A DNA stretch of 64,000 bases from a virus (lineage: Duplodnaviria > Heunggongvirae > Uroviricota > Caudoviricetes): the IMG/VR virus record IMGVR_UViG_3300035659_000001. One strand, written 5' to 3'. Position numbers and translations under genes: made by a program. Each line of letters begins with the position of its first letter. Position 1 is the stretch's first letter. The notes beneath the pieces were generated by a model. That model worked only from the letters and a program-made list of their open reading frames with translations, had not been told where the DNA came from and did no database searches. Shown here in pieces: positions 33,965-63,194 of the stretch.

Positions 33965-34978
33965 ATGAATACTTTAAAATTAAAATATCAAACTAATAAA
34001 GAGTCTAAAAACATCATTTTAAATTACATGAAAAATCAAAATAATGTAATAAAATTCCTATACAATAGATTACAAGAGAACAAATTACTCTCACAAATAC
34101 AGCTCACTTCACTAGCTAATTCCATGAACAACATTTTCATAGACTCTTGGTTCAAACAAAGTGCTATGTATAAAGCTAAAGAATTGGATGAGAATGAAAA
34201 AGTGATATTTGGTGGCAAGAAATTGTTTTTTGAACGACTTAAGAAAAGAATAACAAAAGAAGAATTTCAAATAAAAAAATTGCTACCATTACATATTATT
34301 GGTGAGGCTTGCAAGAGTGGTAATCGTAAGTTTGAGTTTAATATTATTGAAGAGAATAAATTAATATTTAAACCTTGTTTTAAAACAAAAATAGAGCTTC
34401 AATTACCCAAATTAAGAAAAAACTACCAAAAAATACTATTTAAATTAGAACAAGCTACTACTGACAAAAAGTTACCAGTTACTATCTCGTTAGATTTAGA
34501 TTTTATTTATATCACTTACGATGAGAATTTTCTAAAACAAGAAATTGCAAGCAAAGTTAAAAATAGAATCATGACGCTTGATTTAAATCCTAATTTTATA
34601 GGTTTTTCCATAATTGATTGGAAAGAAGAAGATAGTAAGAGTATAATAAAGACGGGCTGTATAAGTATCAAGCAATTAAATGATAAACAATTTGAATTAA
34701 AAGATCTCAAAGTAAGTAGCGAAGATAGTAGAATGAAATATTTAGTCAATAAAAGAGTATTTGAAACATTTGAAGTAGCTAAATATTTAGTTAACATGGC
34801 TAGGCAATATCATGTAGAGAGTTTTGGTATAGAAGAATTGTCAATTAAGTCGAGTGACAAGGGAAAAGGAAGCAAGTATAATAGGTTAGTGAATAATTTA
34901 TGGAATAGAGGGAAATTAGTAAGTAATATAGAAAAGCGACTAAATATTTGTGGTATTAAACTAAGTGAGTTTTTATGA
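33965..34978 (+). pseudogene. tnpB: TnpB/Cas12f-like RNA-guided nuclease, C-terminally truncated
   Basis: RuvC-I LDLNP..IG and RuvC-II IEEL present; zinc finger and RuvC-III missing. Confidence 0.72.
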
Positions 34979-36198
34979 ACAAATACCTTAAAATAGGTGA
35001 TAAACTCAGAATGTCTACAAAACTAATAATTGCGTCAGATCTTCATATCGGAGAATATGCTTTTGGCAAAATTGATCCAGAAACAGGACTTAATACTCGC
35101 TTATTAGATTTCTTAGATAACTTTAATCAAGCAATCGATATTGCAATAACTAAAAAAGTTAATGCATTTATAATTGTTGGTGACATTTACAGAGTTAAAC
35201 ATCCCAGTTCTAAAATAAGAAAACAATTTGCTACTAAACTCACAAAAATCATTCAAGCGAATATCAAAGTAATACTAATAACTGGCAACCATGACATGAC
35301 AACTAGCTCAGACGGTGCTCATGCTATGTCTGAAATGGAAGAGTTGTCGCCTCTAATTGATCAATTAACTGTTGTGTCTTCACCGTCAATAATAGATATA
35401 GATAATACAAGATTATATTGTTTACCGTTTGTAAATAGAGGTGAGCAAGAACTATTGACGCCTGAAGATTTTTTAAAATTTCAAAAACAAAAAATTCAAG
35501 AGTTTAATGATGTTAATGATAATGATTATTACTCTATATTTTTTGGTCATTTTGGAACTGATAAATCAGAAGTTGGTAATAGCTTTGATTTAGACATGTC
35601 GTCTAATGAATTTGAAAACATGGTACAATTGTCAGATTTTGGAAAAAAATGGACAAAAATCTATCTTGGCCACATTCATAAACATCAAGAATTTAATAAT
35701 ATTGCGAGACATGTTGGATCAATTGGTAGAGTTGATTTTTCAGAAGAAGATGAGCAAAAAGGTTTTTATTTTTATGAAGATGGTTATGATGAATTTATAC
35801 CAATAAAAGATCGAGAATTTAAAACATTTCAATTAAATTTGAAAGATGAGCAATGTAAAGAGCAATTAAACAAGTTTTTTAAAGACATACAAAAAATTGA
35901 TTTGTCAAATTCAATCGTAAGAATAAAAACAAACGTTATACAGACATATTATCCTCTTGTAAAATTTGATAAAATTGAATCATATCTAAGAGCTAATTGC
36001 TGGCATTTTACTAATATAGATATTAATGTAATTGCAAAAGAAGATATTAATGAGAATGTTGAGAAGATAACTAGTACTGATTTACCAATTGAAGCTTTGA
36101 AAAAATATGTTGAAAAACATCCTGATAGATATAAAGGTATTGAAGAAAAAATGATTACTAAGGGTCGAGAAATTTTAACAATCGTGAAAAATAAATGA
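34975..36198 (+). CDS. SbcD/Mre11-like exonuclease subunit
   Basis: SDLHIG, VGDIY, TGNHD, GH, YLGHIHK, GS....FSE. Confidence 0.9.
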   Translation: MNKYLKIGDKLRMSTKLIIASDLHIGEYAFGKIDPETGLNTRLLDFLDNFNQAIDIAITKKVNAFIIVGDIYRVKHPSSKIRKQFATKLTKIIQANIKVILITGNHDMTTSSDGAHAMSEMEELSPLIDQLTVVSSPSIIDIDNTRLYCLPFVNRGEQELLTPEDFLKFQKQKIQEFNDVNDNDYYSIFFGHFGTDKSEVGNSFDLDMSSNEFENMVQLSDFGKKWTKIYLGHIHKHQEFNNIARHVGSIGRVDFSEEDEQKGFYFYEDGYDEFIPIKDREFKTFQLNLKDEQCKEQLNKFFKDIQKIDLSNSIVRIKTNVIQTYYPLVKFDKIESYLRANCWHFTNIDINVIAKEDINENVEKITSTDLPIEALKKYVEKHPDRYKGIEEKMITKGREILTIVKNK

Positions 36199-37778
36199 AA
36201 ATTGATTATGTAGAAAAACATACTATTTTTGAAACTATTGTCGGTAGTCAAGCTTACGGCATTGATACTCCTGAATCTGATATTGATAAAGCTGGTGTAA
36301 TGATACCAGATCAAGCATATTTTCTGGGTCTAAATAGATTTGAACAGTTTGACGATTATCCTGAAGAAGATAAAGTCATGTATGATATAAGAAAAGCTTT
36401 AAAACTTATAGCAGACAACAATCCAAACTGCTTAGATTTATTATGTTCGCCAGAGCGGTGTATAACGAAAATGACACCGTATTGGCAAGAAATTGTCGAA
36501 AATAAAGATTTATTTATATCTAAAAAAGCAAGATTTACTTTTTCGAGCTATGCAATTGCTCAATTAGAACGAATAAAAATGCATCGCAAGTTTTTATTAG
36601 CTCCGATAAAAAATAAACCTTTACGATCTGATTATGGATTGCCTGAACATTCATCATTTCCATCTGTGCAATTGAAATCTATAGTTCAAGCTACAATGCA
36701 TGACTTTTTAATGGAAGAACATAAAGAAGACTTTTTTCATGAATTAGACGGTATTTATGGTGATTATTTAATGCCATTGTTTGCAAAATTTTCAAAAGAA
36801 ACTCATAGAAATGTTGCAATGGAATGGATTCAAGAAACTCAAAAATCACAAATCAACACGCTATTGCATTTAGGACCTTCTTATATTAAAGAAGAATTCA
36901 TAGATTTAGCTGAAAAAGAGCTTAGATATTTTGTTGCAAATCAAGAATATGAACGTTATCAGCAATGGTCAAAGACACGAAACCCTAAAAGAGCTATTCT
37001 TGAAGCAAGATTCGGCTATGACACTAAACATGCCGGGCATCTTGTGCGCTTAATGAGAATGGGAGTTGAGATATTGCAGACTGGAAAAGTTAATGTTGAT
37101 CGAACACAAATTGATTCTGTTGAGTTGAAAGAGATTAAAAATGGTGCATGGTCGTATGAGCAACTAGAACAATATGCTAAAGATACAGATAATAAATTAA
37201 CTGATTTATATAATTCATGCAAATTACAAAAATCAGCTCAAATTGAAAAAATAAATGAATTATGTATAAAGATTGTAGATCAGTATTTATCTACAACAAA
37301 AAAGAAAATAAGAGACAAAACTATAACTACACTTGCTGCCGATTGTTTTGCTGGTTTAGAAGCACATGATACTGTAGTTTCAAGACTTTACATAAGTAAC
37401 AATTTAATGACAAAAGATTTTTTGAAATACGCTAATGATTCATACGATAACCGTATATGGGGTGCAAATCTTCAAGTAATGAATGACGTTGAAAATACTA
37501 TAATTGTTAAGTCAGAATATAAGTGTGGTAGTTTTTCACAAACATCATTGTTTAATGATAATGAAATAATAGAACCTATACGTCATGGTGATAAAGATCC
37601 AACTTGTTCAGTTTGCAAAATTATTAAAAAATTAGGATTACAATCAAATGTGTCAACGAAAAAAGTAATTGAATTATTAGATTATGAACATTGCCCTCAT
37701 TGCTATGGTAGTTTTTCATTCTCAAAACCTGAAAATGCAATTTGTCCATTCTGTAAAAAGTCAATAATAGGAGAATAA
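36195..37778 (+). CDS. Pol-beta-superfamily nucleotidyltransferase (YcgL/RlaP type) with C-terminal extension
   Basis: VGSQAYG..TPESDID, NNPN, YDTKHA.HLVRL, L.EIK.G; extra ~160 aa ending in CxxC pairs. Confidence 0.87.
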   Translation: MKIDYVEKHTIFETIVGSQAYGIDTPESDIDKAGVMIPDQAYFLGLNRFEQFDDYPEEDKVMYDIRKALKLIADNNPNCLDLLCSPERCITKMTPYWQEIVENKDLFISKKARFTFSSYAIAQLERIKMHRKFLLAPIKNKPLRSDYGLPEHSSFPSVQLKSIVQATMHDFLMEEHKEDFFHELDGIYGDYLMPLFAKFSKETHRNVAMEWIQETQKSQINTLLHLGPSYIKEEFIDLAEKELRYFVANQEYERYQQWSKTRNPKRAILEARFGYDTKHAGHLVRLMRMGVEILQTGKVNVDRTQIDSVELKEIKNGAWSYEQLEQYAKDTDNKLTDLYNSCKLQKSAQIEKINELCIKIVDQYLSTTKKKIRDKTITTLAADCFAGLEAHDTVVSRLYISNNLMTKDFLKYANDSYDNRIWGANLQVMNDVENTIIVKSEYKCGSFSQTSLFNDNEIIEPIRHGDKDPTCSVCKIIKKLGLQSNVSTKKVIELLDYEHCPHCYGSFSFSKPENAICPFCKKSIIGE

Positions 37779-44976: not shown

Positions 44977-46428
44977 TTATTCTTTACATATAAAATTCTC
45001 AAATGACCACATATTTTTACTCATTTGTGAACTTGGATTTTCTTTAAAATATTGATAAAAATCATTCACCGGAGTCCAACTTGATTCAGTTGAAACAAAT
45101 TTACCTAAATATGGTTTAGCTATCTTTAAAACATACTCATACGGTAAATCTTCAGGCACACAGACACCTTTATTAGGATTATCAATCATCCATAATATAG
45201 CTGCAATAGCTCCTATTGCAACTTGCACTGTCGTTGCACTTTGATGCTTAACTAACTTTCTTGCACTATTTATATCTAAAATACTTCCTGTCCACCATGA
45301 ATTATATTTATGACCCATTATCAAAGCACCAAGTCTATCCTCACCACTTACAATTTCATTATTCATTATTCTCAACTTAGATTGCATCTTATAATTGTTA
45401 CAACGAAATTCTTGTAATGATGCAATTGTACTATCACATGGTAAATATACATAATGAACAGTTGGTCTGTAAACAATTTTATTATTCTCGCTAACAGTTA
45501 AATACTTTGAAATAGTATAAGCTTCACCATGTCTCACAAGCATTCCAGTAATATTTTGATTTGGCACCCATGATTTTACATTGACATTTATACCCATCTT
45601 AGCTAAAAAAATCTTATTTTTATCTCCATATTCAGGTACATAAGCATTTAATGGAATAGCATCTTCATGAGTGCCCCACCCTAATTCAGCACAAGCTGTA
45701 CCTTCTTCTCTAAATCCTTCAAGACTCCAAGTACCGACAAATTCATCAACTAGCTTAGGCTTATTTGTTATTTGAGTATCTCTTTCACTACAATGAATAA
45801 CTTTGACGCCCAATAATCTTGCTAATAATGGAAATTTTATTTTTTCGTTTTTACTCAATATATCAATAATACTATTTTTATTTGTCATTGTTGAATCACA
45901 TAACATTTGATTAGCAATGTCAACTAAGCCTTGCTTAACGAAACTTGATATCAATCCTGGGTTAGCACCGTGTTCAATAATAGCAGTTGTAGAATTCTTA
46001 TTCCATGAATTAATCATCATCTGCAACTTATGATGTCTATAATATAATGATTTTTTGTCAATTGTACAACCAAATAAATCTTCTGTATCCCATACTTCAG
46101 TGGACGTATTTAAATACATCACACTATTATCATGACACCATTTTACAATGTCATTACAATCTATACTATAACCCAAATCAACTAATATATCATTAGACTT
46201 TACATACTTTGATAATATATCGTTGATATTTTCTTGCGCGATTTTTTCTTTTATGTATGTTAAACCACAAATTGTAAATTTTTCGAGGTCTTCACTTTTA
46301 TCTTGAAAATCAATGATTGTGACTCTGTCCACTGTTATGTCTACGTGCTTTAGTAATAATGGTAGAAAACATTGTGAGACAGAGCCGTAGCCAATTACGA
46401 TGATTCGATTTGCAAATTTTATCTTCAT
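44977..46428 (-). CDS. hss: homospermidine synthase
   Basis: GYGSV, HGANPGLIS.FVK, IHCSERDTQ, EFVGTWS.EG, HGEA, RPTVHY.Y.PC, W.GS.L, AT..QVA. Confidence 0.93.
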   Translation of the reverse strand: MKIKFANRIIVIGYGSVSQCFLPLLLKHVDITVDRVTIIDFQDKSEDLEKFTICGLTYIKEKIAQENINDILSKYVKSNDILVDLGYSIDCNDIVKWCHDNSVMYLNTSTEVWDTEDLFGCTIDKKSLYYRHHKLQMMINSWNKNSTTAIIEHGANPGLISSFVKQGLVDIANQMLCDSTMTNKNSIIDILSKNEKIKFPLLARLLGVKVIHCSERDTQITNKPKLVDEFVGTWSLEGFREEGTACAELGWGTHEDAIPLNAYVPEYGDKNKIFLAKMGINVNVKSWVPNQNITGMLVRHGEAYTISKYLTVSENNKIVYRPTVHYVYLPCDSTIASLQEFRCNNYKMQSKLRIMNNEIVSGEDRLGALIMGHKYNSWWTGSILDINSARKLVKHQSATTVQVAIGAIAAILWMIDNPNKGVCVPEDLPYEYVLKIAKPYLGKFVSTESSWTPVNDFYQYFKENPSSQMSKNMWSFENFICKE

Positions 46429-46497: not shown

Positions 46498-47679
46498 TTA
46501 AACAGACTTAAATTCCCTACTCTCCATAGGTACATATATTCCATTACACTGACCTACATGCTTAATCGTCTTTGCTGCTTTAACATCTCTATCTTCTACT
46601 AAACCACAACTACACTTATACACTCTATCACTCAATGCTATCTCGTTAATATTACCACACATGTAGCACATTTTAGTTGACGGAAACCATTTGTCTATAA
46701 CAAAAACGTTTTTGTTATATTTCAGTTTTGACTTAACTAATCCCATACAACTATGTTGCACAAACTTACCATACTTCTTGTGCCATTCGTGTAATTGCTC
46801 ATCTTGAATGTATATTTTATTGTAGTTTACTGATAAATAATTAACAATTTTATTGGTAGCATCTTTTTTTCTATTTGTATTATGTTCATATTCTCTTTTA
46901 ATCTTTATACAAGTTTTGTATCTATTGTTTGAACCCTTAATTTGTTTTGCTAATTTTTGTTGCAAGCGTTTAAGTCGTTCAGTTTCTTCAACAAACACAT
47001 TAAATATCTCACCATCAGATGTCACTAAATTATTCTTTATACCAAAATCAATTCCTACATCTCCTTTCACTTTATTTTTTATCATTTCTGGTTTAATAAA
47101 TTCATAACAAATTAATTTAATATAATAGCCTGAAGCTTTTTGTATCAATTTAGCATTTGCTATTTCATAACTTTCTTTTATTTGTTTTAACCCATACACT
47201 ATCAACGGCTTTTTTATGCCATTGATTTTTATTTTGTTTTTTGATATTATTTTATGTGTCACATTATATTGTGACAAGTCTATACTATTGTACGACGACT
47301 TAAATTTTAATCGTCCAACTTTAGTACCATTATTTTTGACTTTTGTTAATGTATGAATATTTTGATGTAATATTTTTACTACATCTTGTTTGTTTTTAGC
47401 TGGTAGATATTTTAGTTCTTTTTGTTCCAATTGTTTGTCTTTATTTAGAATAGTAATTGTAGCAATTTTAGAACTAATACTAAATGGGTCTTTTTGTGAA
47501 AGTATAAAATTATAAAGCCATTTAGCTTCAGTAAAGAACATTTTTAATGAAGTTGATTGTGTTTTATTTAATTTTGAATAATCAATTTTAAGCTCTATAC
47601 TTTTACAACGTTGAGTTTGTCGTTTTAATCGAGTTAATTTTAAAGTCTCTTTTGCTTTTTCTATTTTTGCTTTATTCAT
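46498..47679 (-). mobile_element. tnpB: TnpB RNA-guided endonuclease (IS200/IS605/IS607-type), no TnpA adjacent
   Basis: GIDFGIK, IQDE, PSTK.CY.CG..C.CG..DRDV.AA. Confidence 0.9.
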
Positions 47680-52579: not shown

Positions 52580-52584
52580 TTTAT

Positions 52585-52675
52585 ATGTCAGAGGCTACTA
52601 TCGGTTGTGTAGCAACAGTCTGTAAAACTGTTCTCATTTGAGTAAACATTGGAAGTTCGACTCTTCCCTGACATA
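52585..52675 (+). tRNA. tRNA-Tyr(GUA)
   Basis: ACAGT-CTGTAAA-ACTGT, long variable arm, GGAAG-TTCGACT-CTTCC; acceptor/D junction atypical. Confidence 0.78.
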
Positions 52676-52686
52676 TTTGTAAACTC

Positions 52687-54190: not shown

Positions 54191-54278
54191 TGCGCAGTCC
54201 AGTAGCCTGGTTAGCTGGGGAGCCTCATAAGCTTCTGGTCCCATAAGGACCTCGTCGGTTCAAATCCGACCTGCGCTA
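54191..54278 (+). tRNA. tRNA(CAU), Met/fMet-like, with long variable arm
   Basis: GGAGC-CTCATAA-GCTTC; 1:72 mismatch; extra arm GGTCC-CATAA-GGACC. Confidence 0.75.
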
Positions 54279-55949: not shown

Positions 55950-55957
55950 TGTTTCTT

Positions 55958-56041
55958 GCTAAGATGGCGGAATTGGCATACGCTCTATGTTCACCATAGT
56001 CCTCTTCAAAGAGGGTAAGAGTTCAAGTCTCTTTCTTAGCA
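55958..56041 (+). tRNA. tRNA-Leu-like with a 5-nt anticodon loop (TTCAC)
   Basis: Leu-type D-arm, variable arm and A73; CTATG-TTCAC-CATAG. Confidence 0.65.
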
Positions 56042-56050
56042 TTTATTACA

Positions 56051-59594: not shown

Positions 59595-59708
59595 ATGAGT
59601 TTCATTATTCGATTTTTACTTGAAGCATTTGCAACATCTGTTGTACTAGCCACAATTGCAACGTTTGCTATTACAGTGATTAATACAAGGAGATCACATA
59701 GAACTTAG
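59595..59708 (+). CDS. putative attenuator leader peptide (Ile/Thr/Ala/Arg-rich, 37 aa)
   Basis: AAGGA RBS; MSFIIRFLLEAFATSVVLATIATFAITVINTRRSHRT*. Confidence 0.65.
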   Translation: MSFIIRFLLEAFATSVVLATIATFAITVINTRRSHRT

Positions 59709-59769
59709 AGGTCAACTAAATACAAGGAAATATTTAAAGGGCCTCTAAAATGATTTAGGGGCCCTTTTT
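59705..59769 (+). promoter_or_regulatory. attenuator (antiterminator/terminator pair)
   Basis: Terminator AAAGGGCCTCTAAA-ATGA-TTTAGGGGCCCTTTTT; TTAGAGGTC (59705-13) can pair with GGCCTCTAA (59740-48). Confidence 0.7.
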
Positions 59770-60033: not shown

Positions 60034-60627
60034 ATGACCTCGGTTATTGTTTTAACTAGAGACTATCAATTTTGGGGAGAAATTGATTTAGAATCTAAAG
60101 GCAGACAAAGATTTTGGAAGTTATTATCAAAAGAAAAAATAGAAATCTTAGCTGCAGATGAATATGAAGAAATAGGTACTACATCTTTTAAAGTAAAAAA
60201 ACCGTTTGTTATTCGCTTACTAAAATTTGTAGGCTATAAAATAAAGAAATCAGAGATTAATTGGAGTGCTGAAGCTATTTTTGCAAGAGACAATAATGTA
60301 TGTCAATACTGGCATTATAATGAATATAGTAAGTCATTTAAATACCGTTGCAAAGATGGCGAAAGAACAATTGATCATTTAGAACCGAGGTCAAGAGGCG
60401 GAGAAAATACGTTTGAAAATACGGTCTGTGCATGTCATGACTGTAACGTGAATATTAAAAAAGATAGACCGCTAAAAGATACTGGTCTAAAATTAATAAG
60501 AAAGCCGTTTGTGCCAAAACAGAATAAAGATGATTTTGCAATTATAAAATTTGCGTATAATCCTAATAAACTATCACATAGAATATATGTTGAAAGAATA
60601 TTGGGAGGAGAAGTTTTAGGAGATTAG
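60034..60627 (+). CDS. HNH endonuclease (McrA-like)
   Basis: P.VIRL, IFARD...CQY, TIDH..PRSRGG..TFEN.V.AC..CN. Confidence 0.88.
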   Translation: MTSVIVLTRDYQFWGEIDLESKGRQRFWKLLSKEKIEILAADEYEEIGTTSFKVKKPFVIRLLKFVGYKIKKSEINWSAEAIFARDNNVCQYWHYNEYSKSFKYRCKDGERTIDHLEPRSRGGENTFENTVCACHDCNVNIKKDRPLKDTGLKLIRKPFVPKQNKDDFAIIKFAYNPNKLSHRIYVERILGGEVLGD

Positions 60628-60691
60628 CTCAGACAGTTAGAGCACAGTCCTGATAAGACTGAGGTGACTGGCGCGATACCAGTATCTCCTA
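60618..60691 (+). tRNA. tRNA-Ile(GAU)
   Basis: CAGTC-CTGATAA-GACTG; atypical T-loop CGCGATA; overlaps the HNH stop. Confidence 0.85.
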
Positions 60692-60763
60692 TTTTTACAA
60701 TTTTAGAGTTGAATATGAACTTTATTTGTGACAATTAAGACAATTATGAAACAAGGAGCTTTT

Positions 60764-60940: not shown

Positions 60941-61188
60941 TTTATGTTGATGATTTGAAACAATATGATACTAAATTGAAAAATAAAACATGGTGTCATT
61001 TATGGGCTGATGATGTTTCAGAGTTACATGAATTTGCTCAGAAAATAGGTTTAAAACGCGAGTGGTTTCAAAATAAAAAATTATTTGCTCATTATGATTT
61101 AGTGTTAAATAAAAGAATATTAGCACTTGAAAACGGAGCAACATATATTAATTTAAAGCAATATTTAAAAACAAAAGTGCTACAGTAG
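60937..61188 (+). CDS. DUF4031-family protein
   Basis: IYVD, WCHLWAD..ELHEFA..IGLKREWFQ...HYDL...R..A...GA. Confidence 0.85.
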   Translation: MIYVDDLKQYDTKLKNKTWCHLWADDVSELHEFAQKIGLKREWFQNKKLFAHYDLVLNKRILALENGATYINLKQYLKTKVLQ

Positions 61189-61251
61189 CTCAATTAGTAG
61201 AGTTCATCCTTTGTAACGATGATGTTGCGGGTGCGAGTCCTGCCTGTAGCT
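61179..61251 (+). tRNA. tRNA-Thr(UGU)
   Basis: CATC.-TTTGTAA-.GATG; T-loop TGCGAGT. Confidence 0.83.
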
Positions 61252-61256
61252 TTTAA

Positions 61257-61292
61257 AACACGAGGTTGACAGTGCAAGTCTGTCCAGATCCA
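61257..61292 (+). pseudogene. tRNA 3' half (possibly Ala: U70, A73)
   Basis: AA-CACGA-GGTT-GACAG-TGCAAGT-CTGTC-CAGATCC-A with no 5' half. Confidence 0.55.
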
Positions 61293-61303
61293 TTATAGAT
61301 TTT

Positions 61304-61383
61304 GCCCGTATAGTCGAGTCTGCCTTCTAAGTAGATAATCGTAATTGGAACTGAAAATACTGGTTCGAATCCAGTTACGGGTA
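61304..61383 (+). tRNA. atypical tRNA-Arg(UCU) lacking a canonical D-arm
   Basis: GCCCGTA/TACGGGT, TCTGC-CTTCTAA-GTAGA, ACTGG-TTCGAAT-CCAGT. Confidence 0.72.
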
Positions 61384-61460
61384 TTAATTTTTTAAAGAAA
61401 GTGAGATATTTTTCTAAAGAAAGAATAGGTCAAATTTAATCCGAGTTAATCAATATCATA

Positions 61461-61482
61461 AAAAGCCAGATTTCTGGCTTTT
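61461..61482. terminator. bidirectional terminator-like hairpin ending the tRNA operon
   Basis: AAAAGCCAG-ATTT-CTGGCTTTT. Confidence 0.65.
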
Positions 61483-62187
61483 GTTACGTCTAGAGCATTT
61501 TAAAAAGATATTTTGAACAAAACAGCCCCCATAATATCGTGCGCGCGTATAGACACGTGATTCAATGAAAATAAATTTTTCGATCAAGTTAAAACTTGAA
61601 TGTCCATTTGTAAACCTAGCAATAACGACAGCTGCATGCTATTCTAAATTCTTTGTTTACATTTTGCGAAGAGTTACTTTTCTTATGAAAAAATGGCAAA
61701 TTATAAATTGAAAATGCCTGTTTCTAACGCGATGCGTGCGCGCTAGTGCGATGTGCGCGTACACGCGCGAAAACAGACAATTACGATCTCTGCACGTGAA
61801 AGCTGCAACTAAAAATTATAGTGTGTTTACATTTAGGAAAAATTTGATGAATGTGGACAGTTGGTTTTGTAGTATCGCGATAATTTACATCTACGCGTTG
61901 AGAAATGTCAGTTGTCGTAGACTTTGTAGAAAAATTTAAAAATGAGATACTATTTAGTAATAACATTATAATTAGAATTTAAGTCGCCCAGTTCATAAAA
62001 AAAAAGTTTTTTAAGCATTCGTAAACTTTTGTTGAGAAAATGCATATAAAAAAATGAGCCTTTCGAAGAAAGGATCATGTCATTATGTACTCAAAAATAA
62101 GTCTATTCGTAAGTTAAGATCTAAGAGTTTCAATGAATACTCGATTAACATGAAATCTTGTAATTTATATAATTGTAAGCCGACAAA

Positions 62188-63121: not shown

Positions 63122-63194
63122 CGGGGCGTAGCTCAATTGGCTGAGCACATGATTTGGGTTCATGCGGTTATCAGTTCGACTCTGATTGCCCCGA
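63122..63194 (+). tRNA. tRNA-Pro(UGG)
   Basis: CATGA-TTTGGGT-TCATG. Confidence 0.92.

Follow-up and report, generated by a model that had tools for sequence, protein, structure and literature searches.

A conserved, mainly phage-borne family of tRNA genes in which the D-loop motif is predicted to bulge from the 3' side of the anticodon arm

Introduction

What is encoded by an 80-nt element that has the acceptor, anticodon and T arms of a tRNA-Arg(UCU) and, in the place of the D hairpin, only a short connecting strand? Such an element lies at 61304–61383 on the plus strand of the 64,000-nucleotide stretch of IMG/VR virus record IMGVR_UViG_3300035659_000001, the whole of which was analysed and is hereafter called the window. 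An earlier interpretation made from the letters alone (the sequence-only reading) had proposed that the D-loop is moved to the 3' side of the anticodon arm, where it would bulge from a helix formed by the connecting strand and the long variable region. To our knowledge, the cloverleaf is treated as universal in bacterial translation, and mitochondria are regarded as the only place where tRNAs depart from it. Here, we describe the pairing, the relatives, and the context of this gene. The sequence comparisons point, with a probability of roughly 0.75, to a functional elongator tRNA-Arg(UCU) belonging to a conserved, mainly phage-borne non-cloverleaf class.

Layout and covariation of the rewired tRNA gene

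Read from its 5' end, the gene consists of GCCCGTA, TAGTCGAG, TCTGC CTTCTAA GTAGA, TAATCGTAATTGGAACTGAAAAT, ACTGG TTCGAAT CCAGT, TACGGGT, and a final A; pair numbers used below, such as 10–48 or 41–55, count from gene base 61304 as position 1. Several features expected of a cloverleaf tRNA are present, i.e. a 7-bp acceptor stem, a 7-nt anticodon loop (U33, purine 37) on a 5-bp stem, and a 5-bp T stem with a TTCRANY loop. The D hairpin (stem 10–13/22–25) is absent, and 8 nt lie between the acceptor and anticodon stems, compared with the usual D arm of 17–19 nt. This D-arm-less layout with intact acceptor, anticodon, and T arms, as given in the sequence-only reading, is borne out base for base in the sequence. 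The variable region is 23 nt long (61336–61358) and reads TAA-TCG-TAATTGGA-ACTG-AAAAT. It contains no hairpin of its own and instead pairs with the linker, TAGT with ACTG and CGA with TCG, such that TAATTGGA is bulged out. All of these pairings, which had likewise been predicted, are present, and both helices are kept by compensatory changes in homologues. The lack of a self-hairpin, together with the pairing to the linker, rules out the interpretation of the long region as a class II arm or an intron. A permuted or split tRNA gene was also ruled out, since both acceptor strands, which covary, belong to a single 80-nt gene and stand at its ends.

The compensatory changes were examined in alignment A2 (43 genes, gap-free) and in a 73-gene set chosen without reference to CG. 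On A2, 95.5% of cells are paired under the proposed structure, compared with 66% in shuffles and 36–48% in slid controls. Two pairs of the helix formed with ACTG vary in this alignment: 10–48 is GC in 25 genes, AU in 15, and CG in 2, with 17 double changes, and 11–47 is CG in 30, UA in 5, and AU in 4, with 9 double changes. For the helix formed with TCG, the 73-gene set gives CG at 12–38 in all 73 genes and GC 61, AU 8, CG 3, and GU 1 at 13–37; the pair 14–36 is formed in about 60% of the genes, and here G faces only C, T faces A or G, and C faces G. Similar exchanges are found in other subclasses: in the Arg genes with a 7-nt linker, the two central pairs are CG 17, TA 9, and AT 1 and GC 15, CG 7, AT 3, and TA 1, respectively, and the third pair of the Ile subclass is AT 15, TA 9, and GC 6. 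A mutual-information scan of all column pairs with average product correction, to which no structure was supplied, returned at its top only the proposed pairs and the additional pair 41–55, and RNAalifold recovers helices 8–11/47–50 and 12–13/37–38. A covariance model from homologues had been named as the way to check the proposal; the model built from 43 genes carries the proposed pairs, which covary, and the lack of covariation that would mark a pseudogene is not what the alignments contain.

The additional pair 41–55 was followed in all 187 genes of the family described below, where it is A-T in 135, G-C in 35, and G-G in 7, and none of 2,000 shuffles scored as high. Position 41 comes directly after an invariant TA and position 55 directly before the T stem, and by this location, the pair behaves like the canonical R15–Y48 pair. 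It thus looks like the counterpart of 15–48, in which case A40 would correspond to A14 and G44 G45 to G18 G19. Judged from the covariation, the predicted fold is secure in the following points: it is a three-way junction, with a D-stem composed of the 5' strand 10–13 and a split 3' strand 37–38/47–48; the anticodon arm closes one end of this D-stem, and the D-loop motif bulges from its 3' strand.

Several observations weigh against the full reading. The pairs 8–50 and 9–49 never vary in A2, so that covariation is uninformative for them, and the Ile subclass cannot form these two pairs in the same register; possibly, T8 and A9 either pair with G50 and T49 or make contacts of the U8–A14 type. 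The pair 14–36 is unpaired in about 40% of genes. In the subclass to which the window gene belongs, only A46 stands between the GG and the paired base 47 (99 of 117 genes), compared with at least two bases between the GG and the next paired base in ordinary tRNAs and 2–3 in the Ile subclass. A single-base spacer is hard to reconcile with the canonical G19–C56 elbow contact. The claim that the molecule keeps the L-shape is accordingly upheld in one part only, the covarying 15–48-like tertiary pair; because one base only separates the GG from base 47, the contact of G18 G19 with the T-loop, and with it the three-dimensional shape, is at most putative.

A family of rewired tRNA genes in phages

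Relatives were collected by three pattern scans of IMG/VR and a stem-based parser, which yielded 187 distinct genes of the rewired layout in 132 IMG/VR loci, a number to be taken as a lower bound. Their anticodons are TCT (79), TCG (30), TAT (27), ACG (22), GAT (12), CCT (8), GCG (4), and TGT, CCG, CTT, CAT, and TAC (1 each). By class, 144 are Arg genes (UCU, UCG, ACG, CCU, GCG, and CCG), 39 are Ile genes (UAU and GAU), and 4 are others. The parse with the TAC anticodon looks like a misread ACG gene. Single rewired genes with UGU (Thr), CUU (Lys), and CAU (Met or Ile2) were found at L119:3840–3919 (minus strand) and in loci L146 and L204, and the design may not be limited to Arg and Ile.

The members share a 7- to 8-nt linker starting with TA, the composite helix, a TA-R-N(1–3)-GG bulge, and a TGAAAAY tail whose last base forms an R/Y pair with the bulge. 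The window gene has every one of these features, and its geometry (8-nt linker and 23-nt region) is the commonest in the family (84 of 187 genes). When the window was searched with covariance model R1, built from 43 homologues with the rewired structure, the gene scored 92.7 bits (E = 7.7e-23), and the next match, an ordinary tRNA-Thr, scored 23.8 bits. The GC content of the scored family matches ranges from about 41% to 63%.

The layout was also found by blastn in the 642-kb uncultured phage LR756502 and in the cultured Pseudomonas phages Bitten, ventosus, UAVern, and vB_PF_Y1-MI. In each of the four Pseudomonas phages, the rewired gene lies ~80 nt upstream of an ordinary tRNA-Arg(ACG), and in all four records the match falls under no annotated feature. 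The LR756502 record is without any annotation; directly upstream of its rewired gene is a second gene of the same design with the anticodon GAU (Ile). No near-identical DNA was present in the phage collection, and blastn with another family member as the query gave no match at E <= 1e-3, short tRNA sequences being weak queries.

The same family-specific pattern occurred in 95 viral loci and, among prokaryotes, in 10 contigs when 185,579 species were represented by one genome each. These 10 contigs are mostly from metagenome-assembled genomes, and the loci checked contain tRNA arrays. By these counts, the rewired class appears to be almost confined to phage contigs and mainly phage-borne.

Signs of function

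The anticodon loops of the family match those of ordinary isoacceptors (CTTCTAA, CTACGAA, and CTGATAA), and the putative identity marks differ with the class of the anticodon. An A directly follows the GG in 134 of the 144 Arg genes versus 3 of the 39 Ile genes, and the discriminator is A in all 39 Ile genes and A, G, or T in the Arg genes. A20 is the main non-anticodon identity element for the arginyl-tRNA synthetase (ArgRS) of Escherichia coli, and A73 is one for the isoleucyl-tRNA synthetase (IleRS). Compared on this basis, the class-specific marks (A after GG and discriminator) are those that charging would require.

The loci carrying rewired genes contain a median of 6 other tRNAs. A same-anticodon tRNA was called by ARAGORN in the fetched locus for 12 of the 144 rewired Arg genes, which are therefore normally not duplicates. 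In the window, the rewired gene is the only Arg tRNA among 17 tRNAs, and AGA, the codon that its anticodon would read, accounts for 343 of the 542 Arg codons (63%) in the 52 long open reading frames (ORFs).

One sign of function that had been put forward did not hold. The supposed upstream leader with AGG/AGA codons is a 37-codon ORF at 59596–59709 on the plus strand, 1.6 kb upstream, encoding the hydrophobic peptide MSFIIRFLLEAFATSVVLATIATFAITVINTRRSHRT and followed directly on its 3' side by a strong 14-bp terminator hairpin (59736–59767); four ORFs and two tRNAs lie between this ORF and the rewired tRNA. From its sequence, the ORF resembles a gene for a small membrane peptide more than it does the leader of an attenuator.

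Anatomy of the gene and response of tRNA finders

The 5' strand of the acceptor stem, GCCCGTA (61304–61310, positions 1–7), pairs with 61376–61382, and all 7 pairs covary in the family. The 3' strand TACGGGT and the discriminator A (61383) occupy 61376–61383, and CCA is not encoded. The 7 bp include a G1.U72 wobble at the top of the stem, which is shared by 54 of the 144 rewired Arg genes, window gene included, an unusually high frequency for a first base pair. The 8-nt linker TAGTCGAG (61311–61318; T8 A9 G10 T11 C12 G13 A14 G15) takes the place of the D hairpin and provides the 5' strand of the composite helix; the pairs 10–48, 11–47, 13–37, and 14–36 covary, and positions 8, 9, and 12 are invariant. 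The anticodon arm (61319–61335) has the stem TCTGC/GTAGA, in which all 5 pairs covary, and the loop CTTCTAA, the most frequent one in the UCU class (49 of 79 genes). The anticodon TCT (UCU) at 61326–61328 specifies Arg.

The variable region opens with a TAA hinge (61336–61338, positions 33–35), leading from the anticodon stem to the third helix; T33 and A34 are conserved, and G15 is paired with U33 by RNAalifold. TCG (61339–61341, positions 36–38) is the 3' strand of the third helix and the partner of C12 G13 A14. The 8-nt bulge TAATTGGA (61342–61349, positions 39–46) resembles a D-loop, with A14-, R15-, G18G19-, and A20-like bases, and its TA and GG are near-invariant in the family. ACTG (61350–61353, positions 47–50) is the 3' strand of the second helix and the partner of T8 A9 G10 T11. 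In the AAAAT tail (61354–61358, positions 51–55), the A run is near-invariant, and position 41 has its Y48-like partner in the last base. The T arm ACTGG/TTCGAAT/CCAGT (61359–61375) is standard, and its stem covaries.

The Rfam model RF00005 gives the gene 37.2 bits, which is above the gathering score of 29, in an alignment that deletes the D arm (5 nt versus 15 model positions) and places a 20-nt insertion in the variable region. ARAGORN called 16 other tRNAs in the 50.6–63.3 kb region and missed the rewired gene. Across the family, its calls overlap 20 of the 187 rewired genes, 7 of which received the correct name.

Genomic context

The window is a phage-like contig with 30% GC, and the nine runs that contain the stretch are all sediment-metagenome DNA, no RNA run being listed for it. 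In near-identical contigs from four sediment-metagenome runs, the gene is unchanged; in the contig of one more distant relative, unlike sequence takes the place of the three tRNA stretches. The window encodes ribonucleotide reductase, dUTPase, and dCTP deaminase, and its tRNA cluster is interspersed with many homing endonucleases of the HNH and GIY-YIG types. The rewired gene stands in an ORF-free stretch, 52 nt 3' of tRNA-Thr(UGU) (61179–61251). Downstream, the hairpin AGCCAG-ATTT-CTGGCT followed by a T run (61460–61485, plus strand) was read from the sequence and is not listed by the consensus terminator scan; it is the probable end of a tRNA-Ile/tRNA-Thr/tRNA-Arg transcription unit. The spacer 61252–61303 (plus strand) contains an anticodon-arm-like hairpin, GACAG-TGCAAGT-CTGTC, and no other tRNA parts, and may be the remnant of a lost tRNA.

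Other tRNAs of the window are irregular in different ways. ARAGORN labelled an 86-nt class II-like tRNA at 55957–56042 (plus strand) as SeC, with the anticodon UCA; it scores below the Rfam threshold, and its 'anticodon' hairpin has a loop of only 5 nt by RNAfold. This tRNA could be a UGA suppressor. TGA terminates 16 of the 52 long window ORFs, and no general recoding is evident. Four further ARAGORN tRNAs on the plus strand fall below the Rfam threshold, i.e. Tyr (93 nt, 52584–52676), Met (88 nt, 54191–54278), Ile-GAU (60617–60692), and Pro (63122–63194); their D hairpins are present, and their D or T loops are irregular (GCGATAC in the T loop of the Ile gene). The rewired layout was ruled out for the Tyr, Met, 'SeC', Ile, and Pro tRNAs, each of which has a D hairpin and scores at most 24 bits with model R1.

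At 34975–37778 (plus strand), an SbcD-like metallophosphoesterase precedes a 527-aa protein that contains the RlaP domain of RNA-repair-pathway nucleotidyltransferases. The two may form a phage module for RNA repair or tRNA maturation; an RNA ligase was not seen near them. A 393-aa transposase (phrog_506) at 46498–47679 (minus strand) adjoins a saccharopine-dehydrogenase-like gene at 44977–46428.

Interpretation and alternative explanations

In the structure that we favour for the functional tRNA-Arg(UCU), the 8-nt strand after the acceptor stem would run straight into the anticodon stem. G10 T11 (possibly also T8 A9) would pair with ACTG, and C12 G13 (and A14) with TCG, so that the long limb of the junction would be made up of the anticodon stem, the hinge, and a composite 'D-stem' of 4–5 bp; the D-loop motif T-A-R-NN-GG-A would form the 8-nt bulge on its 3' strand. 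The RNA would be co-transcribed with tRNA-Ile and tRNA-Thr, trimmed, and provided with CCA. Charging by the host ArgRS is predicted to depend on C35, U36, and, in the role of A20, the A that follows GG; the charged tRNA would read AGA, the main Arg codon of the phage. The rewiring may have been kept as an escape from a host tRNA-targeting enzyme, or it may reflect the neutral inheritance of a rearrangement.

Three other explanations have to be weighed against this one. One of them, a decayed tRNA gene whose D arm was lost and whose variable region filled with junk, would explain why ARAGORN fails and why Rfam matches the gene only with the D arm deleted. It would not explain a layout conserved in 187 distinct genes from very different phages, nor the compensatory changes located in the very segments that would be junk, nor the invariant motifs TA..GG and TGAAAAY. 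Because both proposed helices are kept by compensatory changes in many homologues, the pseudogene reading is removed; as far as covariation in aligned genes can decide, it is for practical purposes refuted, and we consider it highly improbable. An RNA that is made and is tRNA-like and yet acts outside translation, for example as a regulatory RNA or as a decoy that occupies ArgRS, a modification enzyme, or a tRNA-targeting nuclease of the host, is a more serious and still unlikely candidate. The layout is unlike that of every tRNA known to work on bacterial ribosomes, the geometry of the elbow is uncertain, and the RlaP-type nucleotidyltransferase beside the metallophosphoesterase of the window gives a faint indication that RNA damage is of importance for this phage. 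A decoy, however, would not need class-specific identity marks, covarying acceptor and anticodon stems, and isoacceptor-type loops over six Arg and two Ile anticodons; moreover, the rewired genes are usually the sole carriers of their anticodon in the array, and the anticodon of the window gene fits the dominant Arg codon.

The remaining explanation is a sub-case of the functional tRNA: the molecule would work in translation, and the rewiring would have been selected to remove a D hairpin by which a tRNA nuclease or modifying toxin of the host's anti-phage defence recognises its target. Evasion of nucleases or modifying toxins had been raised in the sequence-only reading, and nothing in the sequence itself points to it. 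Countering defences that cleave tRNAs is a known role of phage tRNAs, and the near-confinement of the class to phage contigs and its restriction to a few amino-acid classes fit such selection. Nevertheless, the analysis identified no defence directed at the D arm of either tRNA-Arg or tRNA-Ile, the anticodon loops, which are the usual targets of nucleases, have been left canonical, and an inherited neutral rearrangement would explain the distribution equally well. We therefore regard selection of this kind as doubtful, somewhat less so than the role outside translation. The same tentative standing applies to the broadest proposal, namely that bacterial RNase P, the CCA-adding enzyme, ArgRS/IleRS, EF-Tu, and the ribosome routinely accept a non-cloverleaf tRNA and that phages keep the Arg/Ile design as it is invisible to a defence or toxin reading the D arm.

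A full-text literature search, outside whose coverage most subscription journals lie, found no description of the rewired layout. On the strength of its conservation and covariation, the family is to be seen as a real, conserved structural variant of tRNA that is undescribed as far as that search reached. If the functional reading is true, the family would reveal to what extent the bacterial machinery really depends on the cloverleaf. Since ARAGORN misses most of these genes, analyses of phage tRNAs and codon usage would under-count Arg and Ile tRNAs. Rewired tRNAs would also supply new scaffolds for orthogonal tRNA engineering and would be a lead on phage–host conflicts over tRNA, and the presence of family members in cultured Pseudomonas phages makes their function open to direct test.

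Comparison with known tRNAs

The closest known counterparts are the class I tRNA-Arg(UCU) species of bacteria and phages, of which E. coli argU and the tRNA-Arg of phage T4 are examples. The rewired gene shares with them the 7-bp acceptor stem, the 5-bp anticodon stem, the CUUCUAA loop, and the 5-bp T stem with the TTCGAAT loop, in addition to U8, the A14/R15-like TA-R, G18G19, the A20-like base, and a covarying 15–48-like pair. It differs from them in that the 3' strand of the D-stem and the D-loop come after the anticodon arm, which places the anticodon arm inside the D-stem, the junction is three-way rather than four-way, and the 'variable' region is 23 nt long. A long region between the anticodon and T arms is shared with the class II tRNAs (Leu, Ser, and Tyr), but these have both a variable-region hairpin and a D arm, whereas the phage gene has neither; true class II matches in the same pattern scan look different from the rewired genes.

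The D-armless mitochondrial tRNAs, such as metazoan tRNA-Ser(AGY) (reviewed in PMC4394434), also lack the D hairpin, and their anticodon helix is likewise extended by pairing of the 5' connector with nucleotides on the 3' side of the anticodon arm. These tRNAs are shortened and work with mitochondrial machinery only; the GG of the D-loop is gone from them, as is, in most cases, the canonical contact of the T-loop. Unlike them (about 55–65 nt, with a short connector and a short variable region), the phage gene is 80 nt long, keeps both TA..GG and a canonical T loop, and is found in viruses of bacteria. Precedent for tRNAs in bacteria and phages that depart from the 7/5 arrangement comes from the allo-tRNAs and other 8/4 or 9/3 tRNAs obtained by metagenome mining (PMC5389517). 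These tRNAs (Mukai et al.) are still four-arm cloverleaves with altered stem lengths, whereas in the phage gene it is the order of the D-arm parts along the chain that is changed.
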